Of a stretch of 42,242 bases of DNA, positions 4,290 through 41,717 are shown piece by piece. Source of the stretch: a phage. The notes under the pieces were generated by a model that saw only the letters and a list, made by a program, of their open reading frames with translations, was not told where the DNA came from and did no database searches. The position numbers and the translations under genes were made by a program. The DNA lies in the sequence record PX871047.1, one strand, 5' to 3'. How positions within the stretch are numbered: the first letter of the stretch is position 1; every line of letters starts with the position of its first letter.

Positions 4290-4838
4290 ATGAAGCTGAA
4301 ACTCAAGCAGCCATCGCCAGAGGTGGTGCAAGCTGCACATGAAGAAGCTGTTAGCGCAAACCGTCGCCGTAAACGACCGCGCGGTGAACAGAGCCTTTAT
4401 CAATCGTCCCGTAATTCCGCAGCGTTGTGGGACACGGACTATTGCGACGAATTGATTCGTTTCTTCGACCGCACGTCATGGGAGGCTATGCCGACCGGTG
4501 CGCACGGAGACTACAAAGCAGTCATTGCGGATAAACCGCCATCACTGGCTCGCTTCGCCTTACACATCGGTGTCACTATCCCGATTATTAAGCTGTGGCT
4601 GCGTGAGATTCCGGCTTTCGCAGAAGCCTATGAAACTGCACAGGCGCTGGAAGAGGCGTATTTCACCGAGACCGGGGCCGCCGGTATCTCGGCTACGTTT
4701 GCCGCCGCGAAGCTGGGCCTCGGAAAAGAGAAACCAGTTGAATCAAGCGAAGAAACTGCACCTACTGAGATTATTTTCAGTGTTGCAGAGCCCGTGGGTA
4801 AAATCGTAACAACGAATATGGGTGAGGTAGAGGAATGA
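4290..4838 (+). CDS. terminase small subunit (putative)
   Basis: Immediately upstream of and overlapping terminase large subunit; ATG 4290 (track ORF begins 4251). Confidence 0.5.
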   Translation: MKLKLKQPSPEVVQAAHEEAVSANRRRKRPRGEQSLYQSSRNSAALWDTDYCDELIRFFDRTSWEAMPTGAHGDYKAVIADKPPSLARFALHIGVTIPIIKLWLREIPAFAEAYETAQALEEAYFTETGAAGISATFAAAKLGLGKEKPVESSEETAPTEIIFSVAEPVGKIVTTNMGEVEE

Positions 4839-6085
4839 GTATTCAGCTATCCGCCCCGCAGGCACTGTTCCTGAATTGCGATAACAAATACAAGGCCTAT
4901 GTCGGCGGCTTCGGCAGCGGCAAGACATTTGTCGGCTGTCTGGACCTGCTTACTTTTATGCTAAAGCATCCCGGTACGCGCCTCGGTTACTTCGGACCAA
5001 CATACCCGGCCATCCGCGACATCTTCTACCCGACATTCGAGGAAGCGGCTAACCTGCTCGGCCTCGATGTTCTGGTTAAATCCGGAGATAAAGAGGTTGT
5101 TGTTACCCGCGGTAAGACGGTGCTCGGAACTGTTATCTGCCGCTCGATGGATAACCCCGGCTCGATAGTCGGCTTCAAAATCGCGGCTGCGGTCGTGGAT
5201 GAGCTGGACGTATTGAGCCGCGAGAAAGCTGAGCTGGCGTGGAACAAAATCGTAGCCCGTATGCGTCTTGTTATTCCTGGCGTAACCAACCACATCTCTG
5301 TAACCACGACGCCGGAAGGGTTCAAGTTCGTCTACGCCAAGTTCAAAGAGAATCCGACACCGAGTTATTCAATGGTGCAGGCTTCCACTCACGAGAACGC
5401 GCGGTTCCTGCCGCCTGACTACATTAGTTCGCTGACCGAGACTTACCCCGCGCAACTGATTAACGCGTACCTGAACGGGGAGTTCGTCAACCTGACATCC
5501 GGCAGCGTGTACTACGCCTATGACCGCCGTAAGCATCGCAGCAAAGAGACAATTCAACCGGGCGACACGTTGTACATCGGGCAGGACTTCAACGTTACGA
5601 AGAACGCCAGCGCCGTGTATGTACAGCGTAAAGATGGCTGGCACGCGGTGGCGGAACTGAAGGGTCTGTTCGATACGCCAGACACCGTGCGTGTAATTAC
5701 TGAGAAGTGGAAGTCCCAAGGACACCGCATCGTCGTTTACCCCGACGCCAGCGGCAAGAACCGCAAGACAAACTCGGCATCAATCTCAGATATCGCATTA
5801 CTCCAGCAGGCCGGTTTTGATGTTCGCGCTAAACCAGCCAACCCTCCGGTTAAAGACCGTGTTTTAGCAGTGAATACCGCGCTGGAAAAAGGTAAGCTGT
5901 GGGTTAATGACCACTTATGCCCGGAGATAGCCAAGACGCTGGAGCAGCAGGCATACGACGATAACGGAGAGCCCGCTAAAGACGGCGTTATCGACCATAT
6001 GGCGGATGCTCTCGGCTATCCTGTAGTTTACGAGATGCCGGTGGTTAAACCAGTAATCAACATCCCGGTGACTTTCGCACTTTAA
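4835..6085 (+). CDS. terminase large subunit
   Basis: N-terminal Walker A GGFGSGKT; position before portal. Confidence 0.8.
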   Translation: MSIQLSAPQALFLNCDNKYKAYVGGFGSGKTFVGCLDLLTFMLKHPGTRLGYFGPTYPAIRDIFYPTFEEAANLLGLDVLVKSGDKEVVVTRGKTVLGTVICRSMDNPGSIVGFKIAAAVVDELDVLSREKAELAWNKIVARMRLVIPGVTNHISVTTTPEGFKFVYAKFKENPTPSYSMVQASTHENARFLPPDYISSLTETYPAQLINAYLNGEFVNLTSGSVYYAYDRRKHRSKETIQPGDTLYIGQDFNVTKNASAVYVQRKDGWHAVAELKGLFDTPDTVRVITEKWKSQGHRIVVYPDASGKNRKTNSASISDIALLQQAGFDVRAKPANPPVKDRVLAVNTALEKGKLWVNDHLCPEIAKTLEQQAYDDNGEPAKDGVIDHMADALGYPVVYEMPVVKPVINIPVTFAL

Positions 6086-6097
6086 GAGGATTATTCA

Positions 6098-7570
6098 ATG
6101 TTAACTATGAACGGTCAGAATCAGGGTGTTAAGACAAAACACCAGGAATGGCTGCAGCACTTCAATAAATGGCAGAAGGTTCGCCATGCTCTGGAAGGCG
6201 ACCTTATTCGCTATCTTCGCAACGTCGGGAAGAATGAGCCTGACCCGACCTACGCGGCCCAGCGCCAGGAAGAATACGAGAACGGCGCCATCTGCTACAA
6301 CTTCACCAAACGTACCCTGGCGGGGATGGTCGGCAGCGTTATGCGTAAAGACCCCGAGCAGATTATCCCGCCTGAACTGGAGTACCTGTTGCGCAACGCC
6401 GACGGTTCCGGTGTCGGGCTGTGGCAGCACGCGCAGGATACGCTAATGGAGATTGACTCAGTGGGCCGTGGCGGGTTGCTGGTGGACGCCCCGGAGACAG
6501 CCGCAGCAACGGCGGCAGAGCAGAACGCAGGGTTGTTAAACCCGGTCATCGCATTCTACACCGCAGAGAACATCATCAACTGGCGGCTGACACGCATCGG
6601 TTCAGTTAACCGCGTGACGATGGTCGTGCTGCGCGAGGCATGGGAGTACTCAGAACCTGGCGCGGAATTTGATACCAAGTTCGGCGAGCAATACCGCGTC
6701 CTTGACCTGATTGACGGTCGCTACCGCCAGCGCATCTATCGCTTCGATGCCGAAGGTGGCGCTCAGGATGAAGTAATCGAAATATTCCCGGAGCTTGGCG
6801 AACAGTTGCGCGGCAAAATCCCGTTCACGTTCATTGGGGCAAGCAACAACGATGCAACCATTGACGACGCACCTTTGCTGCCGTTGGCTGAGCTTAATAT
6901 TGGGCATTTCCGCAACAGCGCGGACAATGAGGAATCCAGCTTCGTTGTAGGGCAGCCCACTCTGTTCATCGCCCCTGGCGAGAACATGAGCGTGGAACAG
7001 TGGAAAGAAGCCAACCCTCACGGCGTGCGCATGGGGTCGCGCTCAGGCCATAACATCGGTTACGGCGGCAACGCGTTTCTGGTTCAGGCCGGAGAGAACA
7101 ACCTCGCCAAACAGAACATGCTGGATAAAGAGAATCAGGCCATCCAGATTGGTGCGCAGCTTATCACGCCGACGCAGCAGATTACCGCTGAATCAGCCCG
7201 CCTGCAACGTGGCGCTGATACATCCGTAATGGCAACCATTGCGCGTAACGTAAGCATGGCATACACAGAGGCGTTGCGTTGGGTGGCTGCTATGCTTGGG
7301 CTGCGTGAAGGCACGGAGATTGAGTTCAAACTGAACATGGAGTTCTTCCTGCAACCGATGACGGCGCAAGACCGCGCACAGTGGATGGCAGACATTAACG
7401 CTGGTTTACTGCCAGCAACCGCCTACTACTCCGCGCTGCGTAAGGCCGGGGTAACTGACTGGACCGACGAGGATATTCAGAACGCTATCGAAGACGCACC
7501 GCTGCCGTTAGGCGCCGCTTCTCAGGTAGCAGGAGAAATTCCGCAGTCGGCGCAGCAACAGCAGGAGTAA
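6098..7570 (+). CDS. portal protein (putative)
   Basis: 490-aa ORF directly after terminase large subunit; AAGAGGA RBS. Confidence 0.6.
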   Translation: MLTMNGQNQGVKTKHQEWLQHFNKWQKVRHALEGDLIRYLRNVGKNEPDPTYAAQRQEEYENGAICYNFTKRTLAGMVGSVMRKDPEQIIPPELEYLLRNADGSGVGLWQHAQDTLMEIDSVGRGGLLVDAPETAAATAAEQNAGLLNPVIAFYTAENIINWRLTRIGSVNRVTMVVLREAWEYSEPGAEFDTKFGEQYRVLDLIDGRYRQRIYRFDAEGGAQDEVIEIFPELGEQLRGKIPFTFIGASNNDATIDDAPLLPLAELNIGHFRNSADNEESSFVVGQPTLFIAPGENMSVEQWKEANPHGVRMGSRSGHNIGYGGNAFLVQAGENNLAKQNMLDKENQAIQIGAQLITPTQQITAESARLQRGADTSVMATIARNVSMAYTEALRWVAAMLGLREGTEIEFKLNMEFFLQPMTAQDRAQWMADINAGLLPATAYYSALRKAGVTDWTDEDIQNAIEDAPLPLGAASQVAGEIPQSAQQQQE

Positions 7571-7575
7571 AGAAA

Positions 7576-7602
7576 AAGGCCCCTTAAGGGGCCTTAGTTT
7601 TA
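7576..7602. terminator. bidirectional intrinsic terminator
   Basis: AAGGCCCC / GGGGCCTT stem; A-run upstream and T-rich downstream. Confidence 0.65.
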
Positions 7603-7845
7603 TCGCACTCTCATAAATAGCTTACCTTTGCGTTGCAACAAATCCATACCGACAGCACCTTCGCCAGATTTGTTCGGACGGCGCATTAAACTAAAGTTCC
7701 ATACTCTAGCTTTTGAAGCATCTTTCGCATTGCACACCCAAAGTCTACCATTTTCTCTTAGGTCAAATAAGTCCGATATACTGAGATTATTAACCGGTAT
7801 GAAACCGCCAATGAACTCACGTTCGCAACTAGGTAATTCCTGCAT
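7600..7845 (-). CDS. hypothetical protein, reverse-strand gene within the head module
   Basis: AGGAGG 5 nt before ATG; own promoter 7871-7899; ends at the bidirectional terminator; AT-rich. Confidence 0.6.
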   Translation of the reverse strand: MQELPSCEREFIGGFIPVNNLSISDLFDLRENGRLWVCNAKDASKARVWNFSLMRRPNKSGEGAVGMDLLQRKGKLFMRVR

Positions 7846-7870
7846 ACACCCTCCTGTTTAAGTTAACTGA

Positions 7871-7899
7871 ATAGTACCCTATTATATTGGTGTCTGCAA
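7871..7899 (-). promoter_or_regulatory. promoter with embedded AATAG-N4-CTATT dyad (type A)
   Basis: Minus strand reads TTGCAG - 17 nt - TACTAT; dyad at 7870-7883. Confidence 0.55.
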
Positions 7900-7943
7900 A
7901 TATTATTTTTATGCGTTACACTGGCGATACTACAGGAGGGCAT

Positions 7944-8987
7944 ATGAGCTTACTTACATCCCTAATTAGCCACCAGATATGGCTACAACGCACCGCATCC
8001 GGCGAGGTGAAAGACCTTGCGCCGTTCATTCAGGAAATGCGGGACGAAATCAAACGGCAGGTGTTGCTGTTCGGCGACGACGGTCGCAGCACCGCGCGAC
8101 TGAATAAACTGTTACGTGACCTCGAAGAAGCACTGACCGGGCTTACAGGCGACTGGCAAACGAAGCTGACAGAAGACCTAAAGGAACTGGCGGCGTATGA
8201 GGCCGAGTGGAACGTGAAGACACTGACGACTAACGTTAACGCGGAATTTGTTACGCCTACCGCCGAACAGGTGTGGGCCGCTGCCGAGTTTCAGCCCTTA
8301 TCATTAAGTGACAAGCCCGTTGATTTCGCCAAGCTGATGGATGGCTGGGGTGAAACAGAAGTATCGCGACTGGTAACTGGTGTTAAGATGGGTTTCGTTC
8401 AAGGCCAAACCACACGGCAGATTGTTAAAAATGTCGTTGGCGCTGGCGGACTGGCGGACATCTCTGAGCGCAACGCAGCTACGGTAACCCGCACCGCGCT
8501 GTCGCACATATCCAACGAAGCACGCAACGAGACGTACCGTCAGAACGACGACATCATCGAGAAATATGAATGGGTATCGACGCTTGACAGCCGTACCAGT
8601 ACGATTTGCAGAGCCAGGGACGGAATGACGTGGGAAATCGGTAAGGGGCCGATGCCCCCCGCCCATTTTGGCTGCCGAAGCACCACAGCACCTGTAATCA
8701 GTTCAGAATTCGACTTCCTCGATAAAGACGCAAAACGTGCAGCTAAGGGTGCGGACGGCGGAACTCAGGTAAGCGTGGACACCTCTTACTACGAGTTCCT
8801 AAAACAACAACCGGCATGGTTTCAGGATGAAGCACTCGGTCCTGTTCGCGGTAAGATTTTCCGCAACAGCGGTATATCGCCGGAAGAGTTTCGCGTAATA
8901 TCTGTAGATGGTTTCGGGAATCCGCTTACGCTTAAGCAGATGGCGGAACTCGATAAACGTGTTGCTGATTATCTGAAAGGGGAATAA
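7944..8987 (+). CDS. head morphogenesis protein (putative)
   Basis: Position after portal; ATG 7944 after AGGAGG (track ORF begins 7887 inside the promoter motif). Confidence 0.5.
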   Translation: MSLLTSLISHQIWLQRTASGEVKDLAPFIQEMRDEIKRQVLLFGDDGRSTARLNKLLRDLEEALTGLTGDWQTKLTEDLKELAAYEAEWNVKTLTTNVNAEFVTPTAEQVWAAAEFQPLSLSDKPVDFAKLMDGWGETEVSRLVTGVKMGFVQGQTTRQIVKNVVGAGGLADISERNAATVTRTALSHISNEARNETYRQNDDIIEKYEWVSTLDSRTSTICRARDGMTWEIGKGPMPPAHFGCRSTTAPVISSEFDFLDKDAKRAAKGADGGTQVSVDTSYYEFLKQQPAWFQDEALGPVRGKIFRNSGISPEEFRVISVDGFGNPLTLKQMAELDKRVADYLKGE

Positions 8988-9448
8988 TGATGGGCTTTTT
9001 CAAAGTAACTGACGTACCTTCGCGTCGCGTTGTCCAGTTTGCTCGCGTGTCTGGCTCCGGTGAGAACGTGGTGTCTATTGGGGACGAAAGTGTACTAGGT
9101 ACGCCAGTAGATGATATGCCGTTTGCAGATAAGACCGGTATTGCGCTACCCGCCGCGGGGATGCTTTACGAGATTCCGTATCTGGCTGACGCCGGCGACG
9201 TGTATTTCTCTGTGCAACCGCAGGACACGGAACTGGCAGACGGCAGCGCAACTATCACTGTCGAAGTTAAGGCGGGCAAAGCACCGTATGCGCTGACCTG
9301 GTACAAAGACGGGAAGGAAGTGGTAAATGCCCCTGAAGAGGCCTTGTCTCTGACAGTTAATGCGGTCGGCGAATACTTCGTTAAAGTTACTGATGCCGAT
9401 GGTGTGGAGGCTGTTAGTAAAGCGGCGAAGGTCATTAAGCCAGAATAA
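8987..9448 (+). CDS. Ig-like domain virion protein
   Basis: C-terminal APYALTWYKDGKEV...GEYFVKVTD, Ig-like pattern shared with the 12660 protein. Confidence 0.45.
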   Translation: MMGFFKVTDVPSRRVVQFARVSGSGENVVSIGDESVLGTPVDDMPFADKTGIALPAAGMLYEIPYLADAGDVYFSVQPQDTELADGSATITVEVKAGKAPYALTWYKDGKEVVNAPEEALSLTVNAVGEYFVKVTDADGVEAVSKAAKVIKPE

Positions 9449-9452
9449 ACTG

Positions 9453-9477
9453 AAGCCCCGTTAAGGGGCTTTATTTC
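9453..9477. terminator. bidirectional intrinsic terminator
   Basis: AAGCCCC / GGGGCTT stem followed by TATTTCC. Confidence 0.6.
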
Positions 9478-9486
9478 CATCAGAGT

Positions 9487-9582
9487 TCACCATTCCCCTC
9501 TATCTGCATCCTCAACCCCGCTAATAGCCCACACAAACAATCCTAAATTAACCAGTAACACAAATGAAATTGCTATCATCAT
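9487..9582 (-). CDS. small hydrophobic peptide (31 aa)
   Basis: GGAGGT before ATG; MMIAISFVLLVNLGLFVWAISG; own promoter 9609-9637. Confidence 0.4.
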   Translation of the reverse strand: MMIAISFVLLVNLGLFVWAISGVEDADRGEW

Positions 9583-9608
9583 AACCACCTCCACTAGGCA
9601 TTTACTGA

Positions 9609-9637
9609 ATAGTACGCTATTATGTTGGGGTGTGCAA
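9609..9637 (-). promoter_or_regulatory. promoter with embedded AATAG-N4-CTATT dyad (type A)
   Basis: Minus strand reads TTGCAC - 17 nt - TACTAT; dyad 9608-9621. Confidence 0.55.
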
Positions 9638-9689
9638 ACTATTTGTTTACGTATTCCAGTTATTCCGCTCAATTGTAAATGTTGGAATA

Positions 9690-9705
9690 AACTATTCGAA
9701 TAGTT
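9690..9705. repeat. perfect 16-bp palindrome AACTATTCGAATAGTT
   Basis: Self-complementary; same half-site (GAATAGT) as the promoter dyads but in inverted arrangement; abuts -35 of promoter 9704-9732. Confidence 0.6.
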
Positions 9706-9732
9706 GACTTTTCACTAAAAATATGATAAGCT
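9704..9732 (+). promoter_or_regulatory. promoter of ORF-less element, copy 1
   Basis: TTGACT - 17 nt - TAAGCT with TGn extended -10; same arrangement at 40955-40983. Confidence 0.45.
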
Positions 9733-9738
9733 CCACCT

Positions 9739-9940
9739 GAGCTTGTGAAGTATGAACAAGCGACCGCGGCGCGGGCAGGTAACGGAGCGGGACGTAAGTC
9801 CTGAGTGTAGTTACGCTGACGCGTTCGGAAGGGCCGTACCCTATTGCTTGTGTAAAAAGTAACTGGTTTACTGAGATTACGCCGTTTCTATGTTTAAATG
9901 ATAAGGACTAGCGCCCCGCTTTATGGCGGGGCTTTACTTA
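9739..9940 (+). ncRNA. candidate ORF-less structured transcript (putative sRNA or leader), copy 1
   Basis: No conserved ORF; 5' hairpin GCTTGT/ACAAGC (9741-9761); conserved block 9802-9835; terminal hairpin GCCCCGC/GCGGGGC (9913-9932) followed by TTTACTT; paralog at 40990-41234. Confidence 0.35.
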
Positions 9941-9956
9941 TCGAGAAAGGAGAAAC

Positions 9957-10343
9957 ATGAATCTTAAAGCAACTGTCGTAGCGGGGGCATGTTTCATCAT
10001 CCTGGCTTACGCACACGGCATCTACCAGTACCGCAGCGGCTGGAACGAAGGCCGGGCTAATCTAGCTTCACAGCAACAGCGGAAAGCACAGACCGAGTTA
10101 GCGAAGAAAACACAACGGCAGCAGCAGGACGAATCGAAGGCCGCGGCCGCTGACAACGAAGGCAAGACGAAATCAGAGGTAATTACCCGTGAAGTCGTTA
10201 AGTACATTAAAACGCCTGGCCGCAGCGTGTGCACTTTCGACGATGCTCGCGTCCTGCTCAAGTCCCGCGCCGTCACCAACGCCAATTCCATCCCCGGATA
10301 CGACAATGATGCAGCCGCCGTGCAAGCTGGCACCGCCAAGTAG
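9957..10343 (+). CDS. i-spanin (Rz-like)
   Basis: N-terminal TM segment then Gln/Lys/Glu-rich region; contains out-of-frame lipoprotein ORF. Confidence 0.6.
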   Translation: MNLKATVVAGACFIILAYAHGIYQYRSGWNEGRANLASQQQRKAQTELAKKTQRQQQDESKAAAADNEGKTKSEVITREVVKYIKTPGRSVCTFDDARVLLKSRAVTNANSIPGYDNDAAAVQAGTAK

Positions 10344-10452
10344 CGACGCGGACGAGGATTTGGCTATCGACGTTCAGAACGCCGAATGCGTACGGCAACT
10401 GAGACTGAAAGTGTTCATGTTGCAGGATTACGTGAGGAATATTCTGGAATAG
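10189..10452 (+). CDS. o-spanin (Rz1-like lipoprotein), overlapped architecture
   Basis: GTG start; signal peptide with lipobox LAS-C; Pro-rich mature part; starts inside Rz-like ORF in another frame and extends past its stop. Confidence 0.55.
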   Translation: MKSLSTLKRLAAACALSTMLASCSSPAPSPTPIPSPDTTMMQPPCKLAPPSSDADEDLAIDVQNAECVRQLRLKVFMLQDYVRNILE

Positions 10453-11238: not shown

Positions 11239-12288
11239 ATGGCAATTACCACTATCGGCGATATCGTAACTGGCAACATCCCGGTCCTGGCGTCTTACAT
11301 GACCGAGGACCCGGTAGAAAAAACCGCGTTCTTCCAGTCTGGTATCCTTACCCCGACTCCGTACGCTGCCGAGATTGCTCGTGGCCCATCCAACGTCGCT
11401 AATATTCCTTTCTGGAAAGCGATTGATACCTCTATCGAGCCAAACTACTCGAACGACGTATATCAGGACATCGCTACCCCGCGTAACGTGCAGACCGGCG
11501 AGATGATGGCGCGCGTTGCGTATCTGAACGAAGGTTTCGGTCAGGCAGACCTGACTGTAGAACTGACCAGCCAGAACCCTCTGCAATCCGTGGCATCTCG
11601 TCTGGATAACTTCTGGCAGCGTCAGGCGCAACGCCGTCTGATTGCTACCGCGCTCGGTCTGTACAACGACAACGTAGCTGCTACCGACGCATACCACGAG
11701 CAGAACGACATGGTAATCGACGTGTCTGCTACTCTGGGCTTCGACTCCGGCGCATTCATCGACGCTACCCAGACTATGGGTGATGCGCTGATGGGCAACG
11801 GCGGCGAAGTGCTAGGTGCTATCGCGATGCACAGCTTCGTTTATGCGCAGGCTCGTAAGCAGCAGCTTATTGACTTCATCCGCGACGCCGACAACAACAC
11901 CATGTTCGCCACCTACCAGGGCTACCGCGTGATTGTTGACGACAGCATGACCGTAGTCGGTACTGGCCCGGGCCGTAAGTTCATCTCCATCATCTTCGGC
12001 AACGGCGCTATCGGTTATGGTGAAGGCAGCCCGTCCAACCCGCTGGAATACGAACGTGAAGCGTCTCGCGGCAACGGCGGTGGTGTAGAAACCCTGTGGA
12101 CCCGTAAGACCTGGTTGCTGCACCCACTGGGCTACAGCTTCACCAGCGCAGTAATCACTGGCAACGGCACCGAGACCGTCGCACGCTCCGCTTCCTGGCA
12201 GGACCTGGCGAACGCCTCCAACTGGAACCGTGTGGTTGAACGTAAGCATGTACCGATTGCCTTCCTGGTAACTGGTGTCGGGGCTTAA
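11239..12288 (+). CDS. major capsid protein
   Basis: 349-aa ORF after scaffold, strong terminator after stop; TGAGGA RBS. Confidence 0.7.
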   Translation: MAITTIGDIVTGNIPVLASYMTEDPVEKTAFFQSGILTPTPYAAEIARGPSNVANIPFWKAIDTSIEPNYSNDVYQDIATPRNVQTGEMMARVAYLNEGFGQADLTVELTSQNPLQSVASRLDNFWQRQAQRRLIATALGLYNDNVAATDAYHEQNDMVIDVSATLGFDSGAFIDATQTMGDALMGNGGEVLGAIAMHSFVYAQARKQQLIDFIRDADNNTMFATYQGYRVIVDDSMTVVGTGPGRKFISIIFGNGAIGYGEGSPSNPLEYEREASRGNGGGVETLWTRKTWLLHPLGYSFTSAVITGNGTETVARSASWQDLANASNWNRVVERKHVPIAFLVTGVGA

Positions 12289-16695: not shown

Positions 16696-16700
16696 AACTA

Positions 16701-16723
16701 AGGCCCCGAAAGGGGCCTTTTTC
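16701..16723. terminator. bidirectional intrinsic terminator
   Basis: AGGCCCC / GGGGCCT stem, GAAA loop, TTTTCT; near-identical to terminator at 29235. Confidence 0.7.
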
Positions 16724-16900
16724 TCACTCACTTTTGAATGGCATTTCGTAGAAGTTAGTTAACTGACCTCTGTCACTCCGTTCTGTCATCTCTTTTGTCG
16801 CCTCTTCCTTGCTACCTACGGCGTAAATATCAACCCACTCATCCCATTCTTCGTCATATACGCGGATAACGTATATTGCCCCCATTGTGCCTTCACGCAT
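16724..16900 (-). CDS. hypothetical small acidic protein
   Basis: Last gene of reverse-strand island; track ORF 16724..16930 begins at TTG; internal ATG 16900 chosen, start uncertain. Confidence 0.4.
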   Translation of the reverse strand: MREGTMGAIYVIRVYDEEWDEWVDIYAVGSKEEATKEMTERSDRGQLTNFYEMPFKSE

Positions 16901-17462
16901 TTGGGTAAATCCCCAGGATTCTATTGGCAACCGTGGCCGCGGTTAATGTAATCTCACCAGGAATGATGGCGACGTCATGGCATACTACCCCATCAATATC
17001 GTACAGGTAGCCACGGCTATCCCCGTCAAACGTGTAGCCGTCTCGGTGCAAGCGGACGATTCGCACGTCATGCCCAGCGGCGACGATAGGGGCAACTTCA
17101 CTGGCAAACCCACCGTCGGACACCACAAAAACTTCGTCGCCGTCAGGCAAGTTTTCAGCGAGATACTTACCGAAATAATCATTGCCAAGTACAGGCTTAA
17201 TGAATTGCTCCGAGATAGCAATCATGAACTGACGTCGCGACAACCCATTAAGGAAACATTCTGGCTTTTCTTTCCGTGCCCGGTCGTCGTAGCCGTCGAG
17301 AAATTCGTGGTAAGCATCCGGGCCTAACGCTGCCCGAGCAATATTGAACATTGGATTCTTGAAACTGGTAGTTCCTTTCGCAAAGCCCATTTCTACCATC
17401 GCCATAGCAAGCGTGTCTTTCCCGCAACCCGCAGGGCCATTAAGGATAATTACCTTAGCCAT
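16893..17462 (-). CDS. P-loop nucleotide/polynucleotide kinase-like protein
   Basis: Walker A GPAGCGKDT near N-terminus; start overlaps stop of upstream phosphatase gene. Confidence 0.6.
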   Translation of the reverse strand: MAKVIILNGPAGCGKDTLAMAMVEMGFAKGTTSFKNPMFNIARAALGPDAYHEFLDGYDDRARKEKPECFLNGLSRRQFMIAISEQFIKPVLGNDYFGKYLAENLPDGDEVFVVSDGGFASEVAPIVAAGHDVRIVRLHRDGYTFDGDSRGYLYDIDGVVCHDVAIIPGEITLTAATVANRILGIYPNA

Positions 17463-17947
17463 TATTTATTGCTCCCGTGTGATTTTAAGTGTGTAGAGTT
17501 CCCGTTACAGTCGTATTCAGTAACCGCGTGCGTAGTGACTCCTAAGCCGCGGAAATGCTTAATCACCGCGGGCGAGTCGTCGAATGCGCACAATATTCTC
17601 TCCAGCCCGATAGCACGCAACACCTCTTCTTTAATTACGATGTCTTTTCTGTTGTCGTGTTTGCTGCGCATGATTAGCTGATAAAATTCGACGCGGTGGC
17701 GCTGCAGCCACATTCTGGTTTCTTTTTCTGCATCATCACTGCGGCCCGTTAAAATAATAACGGCATAGCGACGATTAAGGGCGTTACACAGTTCGATGTT
17801 ATCTTTAATGGGCGCGTCATCTTTGCAGGCCATGTTAAAAGGCTTCCACGCCCATGTTTCGTTGTAGTTATCTTTCGGTAGCAGGTGTAAACGATGAGTA
17901 CCGTCCGCCAATGTCCCGTCTAAATCGAAAATCACAATATCTTTCAT
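17462..17947 (-). CDS. HAD-family phosphatase, T4 polynucleotide kinase-phosphatase phosphatase-domain-like
   Basis: N-terminal FDLDGTLA (DxDxT) motif; later TGR...DNRKDIVIKEEV block recalled as similar to T4 Pnkp phosphatase domain. Confidence 0.55.
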   Translation of the reverse strand: MKDIVIFDLDGTLADGTHRLHLLPKDNYNETWAWKPFNMACKDDAPIKDNIELCNALNRRYAVIILTGRSDDAEKETRMWLQRHRVEFYQLIMRSKHDNRKDIVIKEEVLRAIGLERILCAFDDSPAVIKHFRGLGVTTHAVTEYDCNGNSTHLKSHGSNK

Positions 17948-19074
17948 CCCAGCATCTCCGGTGAAATAGTTAAACGTGCAACCTCACCATATTCGGCGCT
18001 ATAAGTAATTACATTTGCACTGCGCCCTGACATCCAACCGCCGCGTGAGGCATAGGCGTCTTTAGCCGCTAAGGTTCGGTGTTGCTCAACAATCATGTTA
18101 CGGCTTTCTACAATCTTCTGATGGTGCAGGTGGCCTACGTGGGCGTAGCTGTAAACACTCTCTCCGAACGCTTTGCGGAACTTAGCAATCATTACCGGTT
18201 CGATAGCGTCGAATCGTGCTTTATGCCCGTGATGGAAGAACAGCGTCGTTTTGCCGTGTTGCACCATCTTGTAAACATCCGGCGACGTATCGACGAACAC
18301 ACGAGGCTCATTGTCGTACAGCGTGCTGAACATCTCAGCCAGCCAAATCATTCCGCTTTCGTCGTGGTTCCCTTGCACGATAAGCAAGCGAACATTTTTA
18401 TGCTTAACGAGTGCCATATCAACAACACGGCGGACCATACGAATCATGTAGCGGACCAGTTTCTGATAGCGCGTGTCCGCGTCAAGAACATGACCACTCG
18501 CTGGCGTAACCGCATCCAGGCTATCGAAGTGTGCAAGGTCACCTAGCAGATTAATAACACCCGTTCCTGCATCCGGCGCTTTCTGAAACGCAGCATCGAA
18601 CCAGCGAGAGAACAGGTCTTCCGCAATCTTCATATCCCAGTCGTCGCCGCTCTCGTCGGCCCAGGCCAGCATACCGAGATGGAAATCAGACACAGTGTAA
18701 AGGTTGAGTAGTTTATCGTCGCGTTTAGCGCGGGCGGCTTTAACAGGCGCAACTGGCGTAATCTCTGACTTCATGCCTTCGATTACGGCTTTCATCAACT
18801 CGACCTGACGTTCGGCGTCAGTGTCTGTCTTAACCCATTGCAACTTAGTGTTGCCGGACTCATCCACCAGGGACGACGTCCCTTTAATCTTGTAGCCGTC
18901 AGGAACAAGGTGACTAACGTCACGCCCGTGACCCACGCCTTTCTTGGCCAGCTTCGCTTTACGGATACGAATAACGCGGTCTGAGATGCCGTATTTACGG
19001 GCAATGTCGATATTCTTCATCCCGGCGTTCAATTCTTCCTGTAACTGTTCGTCGGTTATTTTCTTCCGGGCCAT
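17944..19074 (-). CDS. HTH-domain calcineurin-like metallophosphoesterase
   Basis: N-terminal HTH-like NIDIARKYGISDRVIRIRK; metallophosphoesterase motifs DFHLG, GDLAHFD, GNHD, HHGH, GHLHH. Confidence 0.6.
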   Translation of the reverse strand: MARKKITDEQLQEELNAGMKNIDIARKYGISDRVIRIRKAKLAKKGVGHGRDVSHLVPDGYKIKGTSSLVDESGNTKLQWVKTDTDAERQVELMKAVIEGMKSEITPVAPVKAARAKRDDKLLNLYTVSDFHLGMLAWADESGDDWDMKIAEDLFSRWFDAAFQKAPDAGTGVINLLGDLAHFDSLDAVTPASGHVLDADTRYQKLVRYMIRMVRRVVDMALVKHKNVRLLIVQGNHDESGMIWLAEMFSTLYDNEPRVFVDTSPDVYKMVQHGKTTLFFHHGHKARFDAIEPVMIAKFRKAFGESVYSYAHVGHLHHQKIVESRNMIVEQHRTLAAKDAYASRGGWMSGRSANVITYSAEYGEVARLTISPEMLG

Positions 19075-19112
19075 GCTTATGTCCTCATGTGTAGGATTTG
19101 TCCTATACTAGC

Positions 19113-19304
19113 TTACTTCTCGTTAACATTCGAGTTGCAAGCCCAGATTAAAATAAAGACCCACGGCAGCAGAGCCCAGCCAAGAAACAGGTTAGCCATG
19201 AATATTGCCAACTTCGCTTTATGGCCACGCATATGGGCTACTAAAAACGGGATAAAATAAACTAAAACGATAATGATTAAGAAGAACATAGTAATGCCAG
19301 TCAT
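19113..19304 (-). CDS. superinfection-immunity-like small membrane protein
   Basis: Two TM segments with RGH...NLFLGWALLPW pattern; AGGAGC RBS; first gene after promoter 19346-19374. Confidence 0.5.
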   Translation of the reverse strand: MTGITMFFLIIIVLVYFIPFLVAHMRGHKAKLAIFMANLFLGWALLPWVFILIWACNSNVNEK

Positions 19305-19345
19305 GGTGTAGCTCCTGTTTGAGTTAACATTGTTGGTGTAAGTGA

Positions 19346-19374
19346 ATAGTATCCTATTATGTTGGGGTGTGCAA
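19346..19374 (-). promoter_or_regulatory. promoter with embedded AATAG-N4-CTATT dyad (type A)
   Basis: Minus strand TTGCAC - 17 nt - TACTAT; 33-bp block 19342-19374 identical to reverse complement of 41273-41305. Confidence 0.6.
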
Positions 19375-40954: not shown

Positions 40955-40983
40955 TTGACTTTTACTTAAAAATGTGCTAAGCT
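40955..40983 (+). promoter_or_regulatory. promoter of ORF-less element, copy 2
   Basis: TTGACT - 17 nt - TAAGCT with TGn; paralog of 9704-9732. Confidence 0.45.
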
Positions 40984-40989
40984 TCACTG

Positions 40990-41234
40990 AGCTTGTGAGA
41001 TATCGCAAGCGACCGCGGAGCGGCAGGGAACGCAACGCGTGCCATTAGGCACTTGAGTGTAGTTCCGCTGGCGCTTTCGGAAGGGCCAAAGTCTATTGTT
41101 AATCCCGCCTAAATACCCAAGTCACTGATAATTAAAGTTTCTATAGTTGCCGTAAGCGAGGTAGAGAGTACTTCACTCCGCTGTGGTGGGCTAACGCCCA
41201 CCCACTGCGTTGCGTACTCTTTTAAGAAACGAAA
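40990..41234 (+). ncRNA. candidate ORF-less structured transcript (putative sRNA), copy 2
   Basis: No ATG-initiated ORF; 5' hairpin GCTTGT/GCAAGC (40991-41010); conserved block 41064-41097; nested terminal hairpins AGAGTAC...GGTGGGC/GCCCACC...GTACTCT then TTT. Confidence 0.35.
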
Positions 41235-41272
41235 GAATCACAACGGCAACGTAACTATTCTCTTGCACACCC

Positions 41273-41301
41273 CAACATAATAGGATACTATTCACTTATC
41301 G
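41273..41301 (+). promoter_or_regulatory. early promoter with embedded AATAG-N4-CTATT dyad (type A)
   Basis: TTGCAC - 17 nt - TACTAT; dyad 41289-41302. Confidence 0.6.
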
Positions 41302-41325: not shown

Positions 41326-41517
41326 ATGTTTAAAAAGGGTCAGTTGGTTAAAAGTGCCGACGGTAAACACGGCATAATTGAATTAAAATCATCTTTATTT
41401 CCCGGGCAGTACGTAGTGACTGTGCAAAAGGTGAGAGGTGTAAATTCGAAAACATACGTAGCAGAGAGGAACTTAGAACTCATCGGCAACAATTTTAAAT
41501 TCAAAGGGGCGAAGTGA
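41326..41517 (+). CDS. hypothetical early protein
   Basis: ATG after AGAGGAG (track ORF begins GTG 41317). Confidence 0.5.
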   Translation: MFKKGQLVKSADGKHGIIELKSSLFPGQYVVTVQKVRGVNSKTYVAERNLELIGNNFKFKGAK

Positions 41518-41717
41518 TGGAAGAATTATTTGAAGAACTGAAACATCATAAACTGGAGAAAGTACATTTCCAGGTAAACAGGTACGAGGTTGTTATTTTA
41601 GATGGAAAAACAATTATCACAGATTCTGCCAGGAGAATGCTTCATATTCTACGCTTCATACGAACGGCATCGAATCATGATGCTCGTGCCTACGACTCTG
41701 AGGGAGGTTGCCGTTAA
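41514..41717 (+). CDS. hypothetical early protein
   Basis: Track ORF, ATGA-coupled. Confidence 0.5.
   Translation: MMEELFEELKHHKLEKVHFQVNRYEVVILDGKTIITDSARRMLHILRFIRTASNHDARAYDSEGGCR

Follow-up and report, generated by a model that had tools for sequence, protein, structure and literature searches.

The stretch of DNA analysed here, a phage sequence of 42,242 nucleotides (nt; record PX871047.1) referred to throughout as the window, contains two short minus-strand units within its plus-strand cluster of head genes. Each unit combines a small open reading frame (ORF) with a promoter-like motif and a hairpin terminator, and both are likely to be mobile accessory-gene cassettes. In a megablast search with positions 7300-9950, 240 phage records were retrieved, the best of which match at 88-94% identity and nearly all of which belong to Escherichia or Salmonella phages of the Guernseyvirinae, genera Kagunavirus and Jerseyvirus (K1H, RP180, LM02P1, etc.); the window is the genome of a Kagunavirus, with Escherichia coli as host. 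The plus-strand genes around the units encode the large terminase (4835-6085), the portal (6098-7570), a Mu-F-like head morphogenesis protein (7944-8987), a Hoc-like decoration protein with an Ig domain (8987-9448) and the i-spanin and o-spanin (9957-10452), downstream of which lie the genes for the scaffold protein and the major capsid protein (11239-12288). Ten ORFs, the largest ones included, were scanned for recognisable functions; DNA polymerase A, a helicase-primase, nucleases, a SNF2 helicase and the tailspike were found among them, and neither an integrase nor an RNA polymerase was. Because this set lacks an integrase and papers on Kagunavirus phages report no lysogeny genes (PMC7203180), the phage appears to be virulent.

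The two ORFs had been singled out in a first-pass annotation as reverse-strand genes with their own promoters, and both lie where that annotation placed them, between plus-strand genes. In the first unit, located between the portal and Mu-F genes, an 81-amino-acid (aa) gene (7600-7845, minus strand; cargo family C6) starts with an ATG 4 nt after the Shine-Dalgarno sequence AGGAGG (7850-7855) and is preceded by the 32-nt motif TTGCAGACACCAATATAATAGGGTACTATTCA (7868-7899, minus strand), which comprises a putative -35 element TTGCAG (7899-7894), a 17-nt spacer and a putative -10 element TACTAT (7876-7871). The second unit, located between the Hoc-like and spanin genes, has the same layout, with an ORF for the hydrophobic 31-aa peptide MMIAISFVLLVNLGLFVWAISGVEDADRGEW (9487-9582, minus strand; cargo family C9), the Shine-Dalgarno sequence GGAGG (9588-9592) 5 nt before its ATG and the motif TTGCACACCCCAACATAATAGCGTACTATTCA (9606-9637, minus strand) with a putative -35 at 9637-9632 and a putative -10 TACTAT at 9614-9609. 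Each ORF directly follows its motif, with a motif-to-ATG gap of 22 nt in the first unit and 23 nt in the second, and the type A promoters previously marked at 7871-7899 and 9609-9637 are parts of these 32-nt motifs (hereafter type A motifs). The units are also AT-richer than their surroundings, as had been claimed: the G+C fraction amounts to 0.40-0.41 for positions 7600-7900 and to 0.375-0.45 for positions 9400-9700, and the flanks have values of 0.52-0.58.

Both units end at hairpins that had been described as bidirectional terminators. This description holds for the G+C-rich hairpin AAGGCCCCTTAAGGGGCCTT (7576-7595), a perfect 10+10 palindrome called as a terminator on both strands, which marks the end of the portal gene on the plus strand and the end of the first unit on the minus strand. 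It is weaker for the hairpin AAGCCCCGTTAAGGGGCTT (9453-9471), located after the Hoc-like gene and after the second unit, which is called on the minus strand only, since its plus-strand tail TATTTCCA is T-poor. The hairpin type AAGGCCCC-loop-GGGGCCTT with the tail AGTTTTAT is present at 7576-7595 and again at 16700-16719, at the end of another minus-strand operon. The terminators after the portal and Hoc-like genes are present also in relatives that lack the insertions and are thus features of the phage backbone, which means that the morphogenesis operon is already punctuated without the units. Two alternative ORFs were considered at these positions and rejected: a 61-aa form of the second ORF with a TTG start (9487-9672), which runs through its own promoter motif, and a plus-strand shadow ORF (7628-7861), which overlaps the 81-aa gene.

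Occupancy and exchange at two late-gene junctions

The synteny of the two units was examined in 75 IMG/VR loci found via the Mu-F protein and in additional GenBank loci, in which the flanking genes were placed by tblastn. A close set of 41 loci has Mu-F proteins of at least 88% identity, and in these the portal/Mu-F junction is referred to as slot 1 and the Hoc-like/spanin junction as slot 2. Slot 1 is empty and without a type A motif in 24 loci, filled with a motif in 13 and filled without a motif in three; for slot 2 the numbers are 10, 26 and zero. Both units are thus inserted into gene pairs that lie side by side in relatives, the slot being empty in 24 of the 41 loci at the first junction and in 10 at the second. 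The intergenic gap of an empty slot is about 80 nt at slot 1 and about 345 nt at slot 2. Pooled over both junctions, there are 34 empty slots without a motif and 42 filled ones, and the motif accompanies the cargo in 39 of these 42. The presence of the motif is strongly associated with occupancy at each slot (Fisher exact test without phylogenetic correction; p about 5e-8 at slot 1 and 4e-9 at slot 2). Moreover, a spacing of 22-26 nt between motif and first start codon is found in 33 of 38 cases, and the credible cargo ORFs at both slots are all on the minus strand.

Closely related phages provide examples of the exchange itself. In phage Shashou the promoter, leader and terminator flank of slot 1 are identical to those of the window and the hairpin is slightly different, but the cargo is an unrelated 173-aa gene; the homology between the two phages has one breakpoint at the ribosome-binding site/ATG and the other at the stop codon/terminator. 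In RP180 slot 1 is empty and the 81-aa gene occupies slot 2, where the resident hairpin has been replaced, and the promoter variant (…ACACCAATATAATAGGGTACTATTCA) and the terminator flank AGGCCCC-loop-GGGGCCTTAGTTTTAT found there are those of slot 1 of the window. Promoter, ORF and terminator thus move together between sites. The motif is identical in slot 1 of 10 of the 12 other relatives with a filled, motif-bearing slot 1, irrespective of the cargo, and is one base off in the remaining two. The empty slot 1 keeps the sequence TAATAG-CA-TACTAT right next to the hairpin, in effect the relic of a promoter joined to the stem-loop, and in filled loci the insertion replaces the ribosome-binding region of Mu-F. 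No match to the cassette DNA was found in 5,426 complete E. coli genomes, and a host or prophage origin of the cassettes is for this reason rejected for now.

Clustering of the cargo yielded about 23 unrelated families, mostly without an assigned function, of which 15 occur in slot 1, 13 in slot 2 and five in both. The five shared families are the 173-aa clamp-like protein, an N6/N4 DNA methylase, a 94-aa protein, a 57-aa protein and the 81-aa protein of the window. A KilA-N gene occupies slot 1 in Jerseyvirus-type loci and accounts for two of the three motif-less filled slots 1 among the close loci. In one locus (L035, 2042-3400) the cargo comprises three genes, one for a Vut_1 transporter, one for a queuine-tRNA-ribosyltransferase-like protein (phrog_887) and one further small ORF, which possibly constitute a 7-deazaguanine DNA modification system; other cargo includes N6/N4 DNA methylases (L016/L021/L024) and a 114-aa lipoprotein (L028, 4415-4759). 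Counter-defence or exclusion functions are plausible for the deazaguanine-type set, the methylases and the lipoprotein. The orientation of the cargo, which is antisense at both slots without exception, could in principle serve another purpose. The cassettes adjoin the 3' ends of late genes and, when slot 1 is filled, the Mu-F ribosome-binding region is replaced, as might be expected of antisense or insulating units that tune late genes through interference or antisense RNA against the 3' ends of portal and Hoc, the peptides being incidental. However, a terminator separates each cargo from the upstream late gene, so that little antisense overlap is expected, many close relatives with empty slots are evidently viable, and the cargo is highly diverse yet conserved as protein in individual families, which include enzymes such as DNA methylases. 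Such a tuning role is therefore regarded as very improbable.

Several annotations at these junctions are unreliable. ORF6 of RP180 (L002/L004; MK737937, 5783-6136) is annotated on the strand opposite the conserved 81-aa gene, gp28 of phiSD1 (L006), a homologue of the 81-aa protein, is labelled as a tail length tape measure protein in its record, the cargo annotation of L003 (SHAK7693_0003) is likewise listed as unreliable, and 'RusA-like resolvase' is another mislabel among GenBank cargo records. The Mu-F gene beside slot 1 is itself variable (metagenome contigs L097 and L099, RP180/L002, L059-L061 and L069), with an intein in some relatives and a match to an ADP-ribosylating-toxin domain in the Mu-F product of one contig.

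The cargo of the two slots

The 81-aa ORF is present on dozens of independent metagenome contigs. Among 5.8 billion proteins the family comprises 18 protein clusters at 78-98% identity, and three further homologues have about 36-39% identity to the window protein (P0019, P0020 and a copy in phage TS6; P0019 sits on a 786-bp contig, the context of which is uninformative). A profile search of 1.84 billion representative proteins returned three matches only, all from the same small family. As far as these searches reach, the 81-aa protein is an orphan family restricted to the Guernseyvirinae. By tblastn the gene is found in 15 of the 240 related phage records, never in two copies, and in three kinds of position: in slot 2 (94-96% identity); downstream of a type A motif as the second gene of the early operon (76-78% identity; NTEC3, phiSD1, VIPECOMC04 and 590B); and antisense between the scaffold and spanin genes (36% identity; Salmonella phages TS6 and STP-1). 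The exact window protein occurs in slot 1 on all six metagenome contigs displayed, out of at least 24 read, and a 96%-identical allele occurs in slot 2, between the Hoc-like and spanin genes, on all eight contigs displayed. Pairwise ratios of nonsynonymous to synonymous substitution rates (dN/dS) are 0.04-0.16, with saturation of synonymous sites where slot alleles are compared with early-operon alleles. The 81-aa ORF is a real protein-coding gene under purifying selection.

The AlphaFold2 model of the protein, for which two of the 36-39% homologues were added, has a predicted local distance difference test (pLDDT) score of 87.4 and a predicted template modelling (pTM) score of 0.73, and displays the order helix-strand-helix-strand-strand-helix-strand. 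The motif R-x-PNKSG does not vary even in the homologues of 36-39% identity, and a few hydrophobic positions are likewise the same in all family members. Neither this protein nor the 31-aa product is significantly similar in sequence or fold to described anti-defence, defence or superinfection-immunity families. The early-operon position that other phages use for the 81-aa gene holds a different gene in the window: gene 2 of this operon (41517-41717, plus strand, 67 aa) is a chimera of the N-terminal MEEL and the C-terminal tail RTASNHDARAxDSEGGCR of the early-operon 81-aa homologues with an unrelated body, and phrog_30617 matches the tail only. The unrelated body indicates that this position is a replacement site as well.

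Its location between the portal and MuF-like head morphogenesis genes might suggest that the 81-aa product is a head-assembly or virion accessory protein, sited there by function. This idea is hard to reconcile with a gene that lies on the opposite strand behind an early-type promoter, is missing from most Kagunaviruses (present in 15 of 240 related records) and is found elsewhere in slot 2 or in the early operon beside replication genes, in a slot that also houses unrelated genes such as those of methylases and the clamp-like protein; we give it hardly any credence. Instead, we commit ourselves, on the basis of genomic context, to the reading that the 81-aa product would be an early, non-structural accessory protein that acts on a component of the host.

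The second cargo presents a different picture, and the conservation of the 31-aa ORF extends to a few relatives only. Its family has three members in the locus survey and six records in the phage collection, and homologues of 33 aa are present in K1H, L028, phiEc4 and K-02. In L028, phiEc4 and K-02 the 33-aa ORF directly follows the type A motif and shares the sequence ATGA, as stop-start overlap, with a downstream gene for a 114-aa lipobox protein (…LSGC), which matches only phrog_13472, a family of unknown function. This lipoprotein gene is absent from the window, and in both K1H and the window the terminator directly follows the peptide ORF. Where K1H and L028 read GGG, the window reads GGGG, and the inserted base produces a +1 frameshift five codons before the ancestral stop and changes the end of the peptide from …SGNGEL* to …RGEW*. 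The copy in M01 / AMO_3701M is frameshifted after nine codons, possibly through a sequencing error. When the window-type peptide is compared with the L028 type, synonymous sites are near saturation (Sd 14/18.8), while 35% of the nonsynonymous sites differ (Nd 23/65), which implies, for the sequences compared, some constraint on the peptide ORF. The 31-aa product has no match in Pfam, PHROGs, PADLOC or NCBIfam.

With its lipoprotein partner missing, its C-terminus frameshifted and the M01 copy broken, the 31-aa ORF is probably a leader or remnant of a peptide plus lipoprotein cassette, possibly still producing a small membrane peptide. The alternative is that it encodes a working small membrane protein, for instance in superinfection exclusion, membrane depolarisation or the timing of lysis, and that the one-gene cassette is stable. 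In keeping with this, the ORF retains GGAGG, its ATG and, undamaged, a hydrophobic segment some 19 residues long; peptides of the window and L028 types have a common pattern (TM-W-A-x-S-G-acidic tail) and 43% identity despite near-saturated synonymous sites; K1H carries an intact 33-aa copy without the lipoprotein gene; the phiEc4 GenBank record annotates the peptide ORF as a coding sequence; and another type A promoter of the window drives a putative small membrane superinfection-immunity protein. On the other hand, only about six phage records carry the ORF, the window copy is altered by the +1 frameshift (RGEW* for SGNGEL*), the M01 / AMO_3701M copy is frameshifted near its N-terminus, the product lacks a family match, and in the full cassette the overlap of the peptide ORF with the lipoprotein start (ATGA) is that of a coupling or leader ORF. 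An independent function is a serious possibility, though the less probable one, and we rank the reading as remnant or leader above it, if not by much.

The pattern of the full peptide-lipoprotein cassette recalls known exclusion genes. Early lipoprotein genes with exclusion functions include llp of phage T5 and cor of phi80 and HK022. By analogy, the cassette of L028, phiEc4 and K-02, with a 114-aa lipobox protein encoded behind an early-type promoter, has the pattern of a receptor-masking lipoprotein. It differs in that the 114-aa protein has no similarity to a named family, and the window retains only the 31-aa upstream partner.

The type A motif and the cassette explanation

On the transcribed strand the type A motif reads TTGCA-N10-TAATAG-NN-TACTATTCA, that is, TTGCAx-N17-TACTAT. 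Four copies are present in the window and none in 100 shuffles (0.00 expected). Besides the two slot copies, one (19343-19374, minus strand) heads an operon that starts with a 63-aa gene of a superinfection-immunity family (19113-19304), and the other (41263-41294, plus strand) heads the early small-gene operon, 31 nt before its first gene. The former operon (16700-19374, minus strand) is another antisense unit inside the structural region and contains, after the motif and the 63-aa gene, a gene for a 376-aa DNA-repair exonuclease (17944-19074) and two more ORFs; the 63-aa product is a membrane protein that matches phrog_1039, 'immunity to superinfection', with an E value of 3e-23. From this distribution we infer that the type A motif is the phage's own early-type promoter, in which case the two units are better described as early accessory cassettes.

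The same consensus (tgAATAGTa-ccTATTat-T) was found seven times by PHIRE analysis in the Kagunavirus fBC-Eco01 and was ascribed to a phage RNA polymerase (PMC9825357). This attribution needs correction, as such a polymerase is apparently not encoded by these phages; since none is present among the ten scanned ORFs, the host sigma-70 RNA polymerase would be the reader of the motif. The conservation of the entire 32 nt, spacer included, and an internal inverted repeat AATAG-N4-CTATT over the -10 element suggest additional binding by a regulator. The -35 element of a second type of promoter beyond slot 2 (see below) is adjoined by a perfect palindrome of 16 bp, AACTATTCGAATAGTT (9690-9705). This palindrome is kept in relatives with slot 2 empty or filled alike, has the half-site GAATAG/CTATTC in common with the type A motif (…GAATAGTACCCTATT…) and may be a common operator for a phage regulator.

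Taken together, the anatomy, the pattern of insertion and the joint movement of promoter, ORF and terminator are best explained, we believe with good though not complete confidence, by mobile accessory-gene cassettes of a virulent Kagunavirus that are shuffled in a manner resembling the PeSL (promoter-early stem-loop) cassettes of T4-type phages. Each cassette would consist of a copy of the early-type promoter of the phage, a short leader that carries a strong ribosome-binding site, a cargo of at least one ORF and a G+C-rich intrinsic terminator. The cassettes would lie antisense to the late genes at the portal/MuF and Hoc-like/spanin junctions, with the terminator insulating them from their late-gene neighbours. 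The promoter and terminator repeats probably provide homology that travels with the cassettes, and recombination between these repeats would allow ORFs to be gained, lost and exchanged at slot 1, at slot 2 and in the early operon. In slot 1 of the window the cargo would be a basic alpha/beta protein of 81 aa that is made early, is not part of the virion and most likely acts on a host target, in takeover or counter-defence, by binding protein or nucleic acid through its R-x-PNKSG loop. In slot 2 it would be a single-pass membrane peptide of 31 aa that elsewhere is translationally coupled to an early lipoprotein, likely a surface or exclusion factor; in the window, with the lipoprotein gene absent, the peptide ORF appears to be drifting.

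Several points weigh against this explanation, foremost the nature of the motif, which agrees with the sigma-70 hexamers at 3/6 and 4/6 positions (7/12) and is not called by a generic sigma-70 promoter scan, so that its status as a promoter rests on comparative evidence. Its 32-nt conservation and internal inverted repeat could mark a regulator-binding site instead of a promoter. If the motif were a binding site for a regulator, or a recombination site, the ORFs would be silent or expressed by read-through only; the poor hexamer match and the negative scan, the constraint on the whole 32 nt including the spacer, the repeat AATAG-N4-CTATT with the related palindrome at 9690-9705, and the survival of a degenerate half-motif in the empty slot 1, where there is nothing to transcribe, are all compatible with this. 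However, the orientation of the motif is fixed and it lies 22-26 nt upstream of the ribosome-binding site/ATG in 33 of 38 cassettes, and it is the sole promoter-like element before the first gene of the early operon and before the immunity operon. Read-through cannot easily supply the cargo, as every neighbouring gene is on the plus strand and no upstream minus-strand transcription unit exists to feed slot 1 or slot 2. The cargo genes are under purifying selection and hence must be expressed. A repressor site that overlaps a promoter would, moreover, fit the cassette explanation too. A motif without promoter function is thus quite improbable.

The remaining points concern the survey, the mechanism and the products. 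The surveyed loci are phylogenetically related and the association statistics consequently overstate their independence; recombination between repeats is deduced from the positions of breakpoints; and either the single-gene or the two-gene form of the peptide cassette may have come first. RNA-seq gene classes of the Kagunavirus K1B4 are too coarse to resolve the slot ORFs (PMC12645636). The 81-aa protein has no match in Pfam, PHROG, PADLOC, NCBIfam or among PDB sequences, and fold searches with its model gave no match to an annotated fold. As neither product has a functional homologue, a role in host takeover or counter-defence is suggested by context only.

The units had been interpreted as classic moron architecture. 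A classical moron is a gene expressed from the prophage for the benefit of the host. The synteny, the base composition and the co-occurrence of the promoter motif with the cargo agree with the architectural part of that interpretation: at both slots the insertion separates genes that are adjacent in relatives, the G+C fraction is deviant (0.38-0.45 against 0.52-0.58), and putative promoter and terminator elements are present in the sequence and co-vary with the cargo, the promoter with its 7/12 match to sigma-70. The classical sense does not apply because the phage appears virulent, with no integrase among the ten scanned ORFs and no lysogeny genes in published accounts of Kagunaviruses (PMC7203180) that would point to a prophage stage. 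The morons of the lambdoid phages HK97 and HK022 are likewise extra genes between late genes adjacent in relatives, with their own putative promoter and terminator, AT-rich and sometimes on the opposite strand; the HK022 record annotates 'moron gene product' genes, including the minus-strand srb inside the tail cluster, and cor. They differ in belonging to temperate phages and being prophage-expressed, whereas here the promoter is not foreign, but a copy of the early promoter of the phage, and the cassette DNA is absent from the E. coli genomes searched.

In concept the moron-like cassettes are closest to the PeSLs of T4-type myoviruses, in which repeats of a conserved, sigma-70-like early promoter and of a stem-loop terminator lie on either side of small ORFans in hypervariable regions; where close relatives differ by an insertion, deletion or replacement, its boundaries fall in these repeats, and promoter activity, terminator activity and mini-circles have been demonstrated experimentally (Arbiol et al. 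2010, PMC2839356; Comeau et al. 2014, PMC4122927). The repeated promoter and stem-loop are found here as well (four motif copies and two terminators in the window, seven motif copies in fBC-Eco01; PMC9825357), as are breakpoints at the repeats and small ORFan cargo (slot 1 of the window and Shashou; about 23 families). The empty slot 1, in which the -10 relic abuts the hairpin, resembles a composite without cargo. In contrast, the present phages are siphovirus-type Guernseyvirinae of about 42 kb and not T4-type phages, and there are only two main slots besides the early operon, antisense inside the late structural cluster and not in early hyperplastic regions. The likeness is one of architecture, not of motif sequences, and because the phage belongs to the Guernseyvirinae its cassettes would be an analogue of the PeSLs and not a member.

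A structured RNA beside slot 2 and wider implications

Just beyond slot 2 lies a near-consensus extended -10 promoter on the plus strand (TTGACT at 9704-9709 and TGaTAAGCT ending at 9732), followed from about +1 by a G+C-rich element of about 115 nt (9736-9852), a strong hairpin terminator (9913-9932) and the spanin, scaffold and capsid genes. The promoter pattern TTGACT-N14-TGnTAAGCT occurs at 9704-9732 and 40958-40986, and a second copy of promoter and element (40958-41104, plus strand; element 40986-41104) is located upstream of the early type A promoter. The two element copies of the window differ by compensatory changes. With a covariance model derived from eight sequences, these two sites are the only matches in the window, and each of ten Jerseyvirus loci has a match at the same position (L037, L040-L045, L072, L073 and L077; about 5126-5230), with E values of 1e-5 to 1e-7; the element thus keeps its place in both Kagunavirus and Jerseyvirus. 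In the alignment, which was fitted to the model and therefore favours structure, 90.7% of cells pair compared to 31-43% with slid partners, 21 of 33 pairs have double changes and none of 500 shuffles reaches the observed value. Rfam gives no family at the gathering threshold over the whole window and, at E values of up to 10 around 9640-9960, only terminator-like noise. As judged by this covariation, the element is a structured RNA, and more novel than the cassettes themselves. A 36-aa ORF over it (9752-9862, plus strand), annotated in GenBank relatives (e.g., CPT_Shashou_007), is disrupted by frameshifts in at least seven close relatives, and a start codon is missing from the second element copy of the window, from L027 and from a Jerseyvirus locus; with frameshifts and missing starts where the RNA structure is kept, it is probably not a gene.

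The element could be a phage small RNA of about 200 nt or a cis-acting antitermination leader analogous to put. Homology to the put RNA of HK022 was rejected, as the covariance model finds nothing in HK022. If it were a put-like leader, the passage of late transcription through the hairpins at the slot boundaries would be accounted for. It is then conceivable, albeit unlikely in our own estimate, that the Guernseyvirinae transcribe their genomes in two tiers. In the first tier early transcripts from the portable type A promoter, those of the antisense cassettes included, would be sensitive to terminators and stop at the slot hairpins. In the second, plus-strand late transcription would start at TTGACT-N14-TGnTAAGCT and its put-like leader RNA would let the polymerase read through the same hairpins. 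Should this be true, the slots would accept any unit of promoter, ORF and terminator without polarity on the head genes, which would explain PeSL-like shuffling inside a late operon, and the 81-aa protein would be a freely exchanged early effector with a new fold.

The cassettes themselves are ordinary phage biology, an instance of moron- or PeSL-type modular exchange that involves no new principle. They do provide an annotation rule for the genomes of Kagunavirus and Jerseyvirus, common candidates for phage therapy: small minus-strand ORFs behind the 32-nt motif are real accessory genes. Records in GenBank miss such ORFs, place them on the wrong strand, as with ORF6 of RP180, or mislabel them. 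In addition, both junctions tolerate insertions in nature and offer a promoter and terminator already in place, which is useful for the engineering of payloads into these phages. The catalogue of their cargo, with DNA methylases, a deazaguanine-type modification set, a lipoprotein and orphans like the 81-aa protein, represents a source of candidate host-takeover and counter-defence genes.

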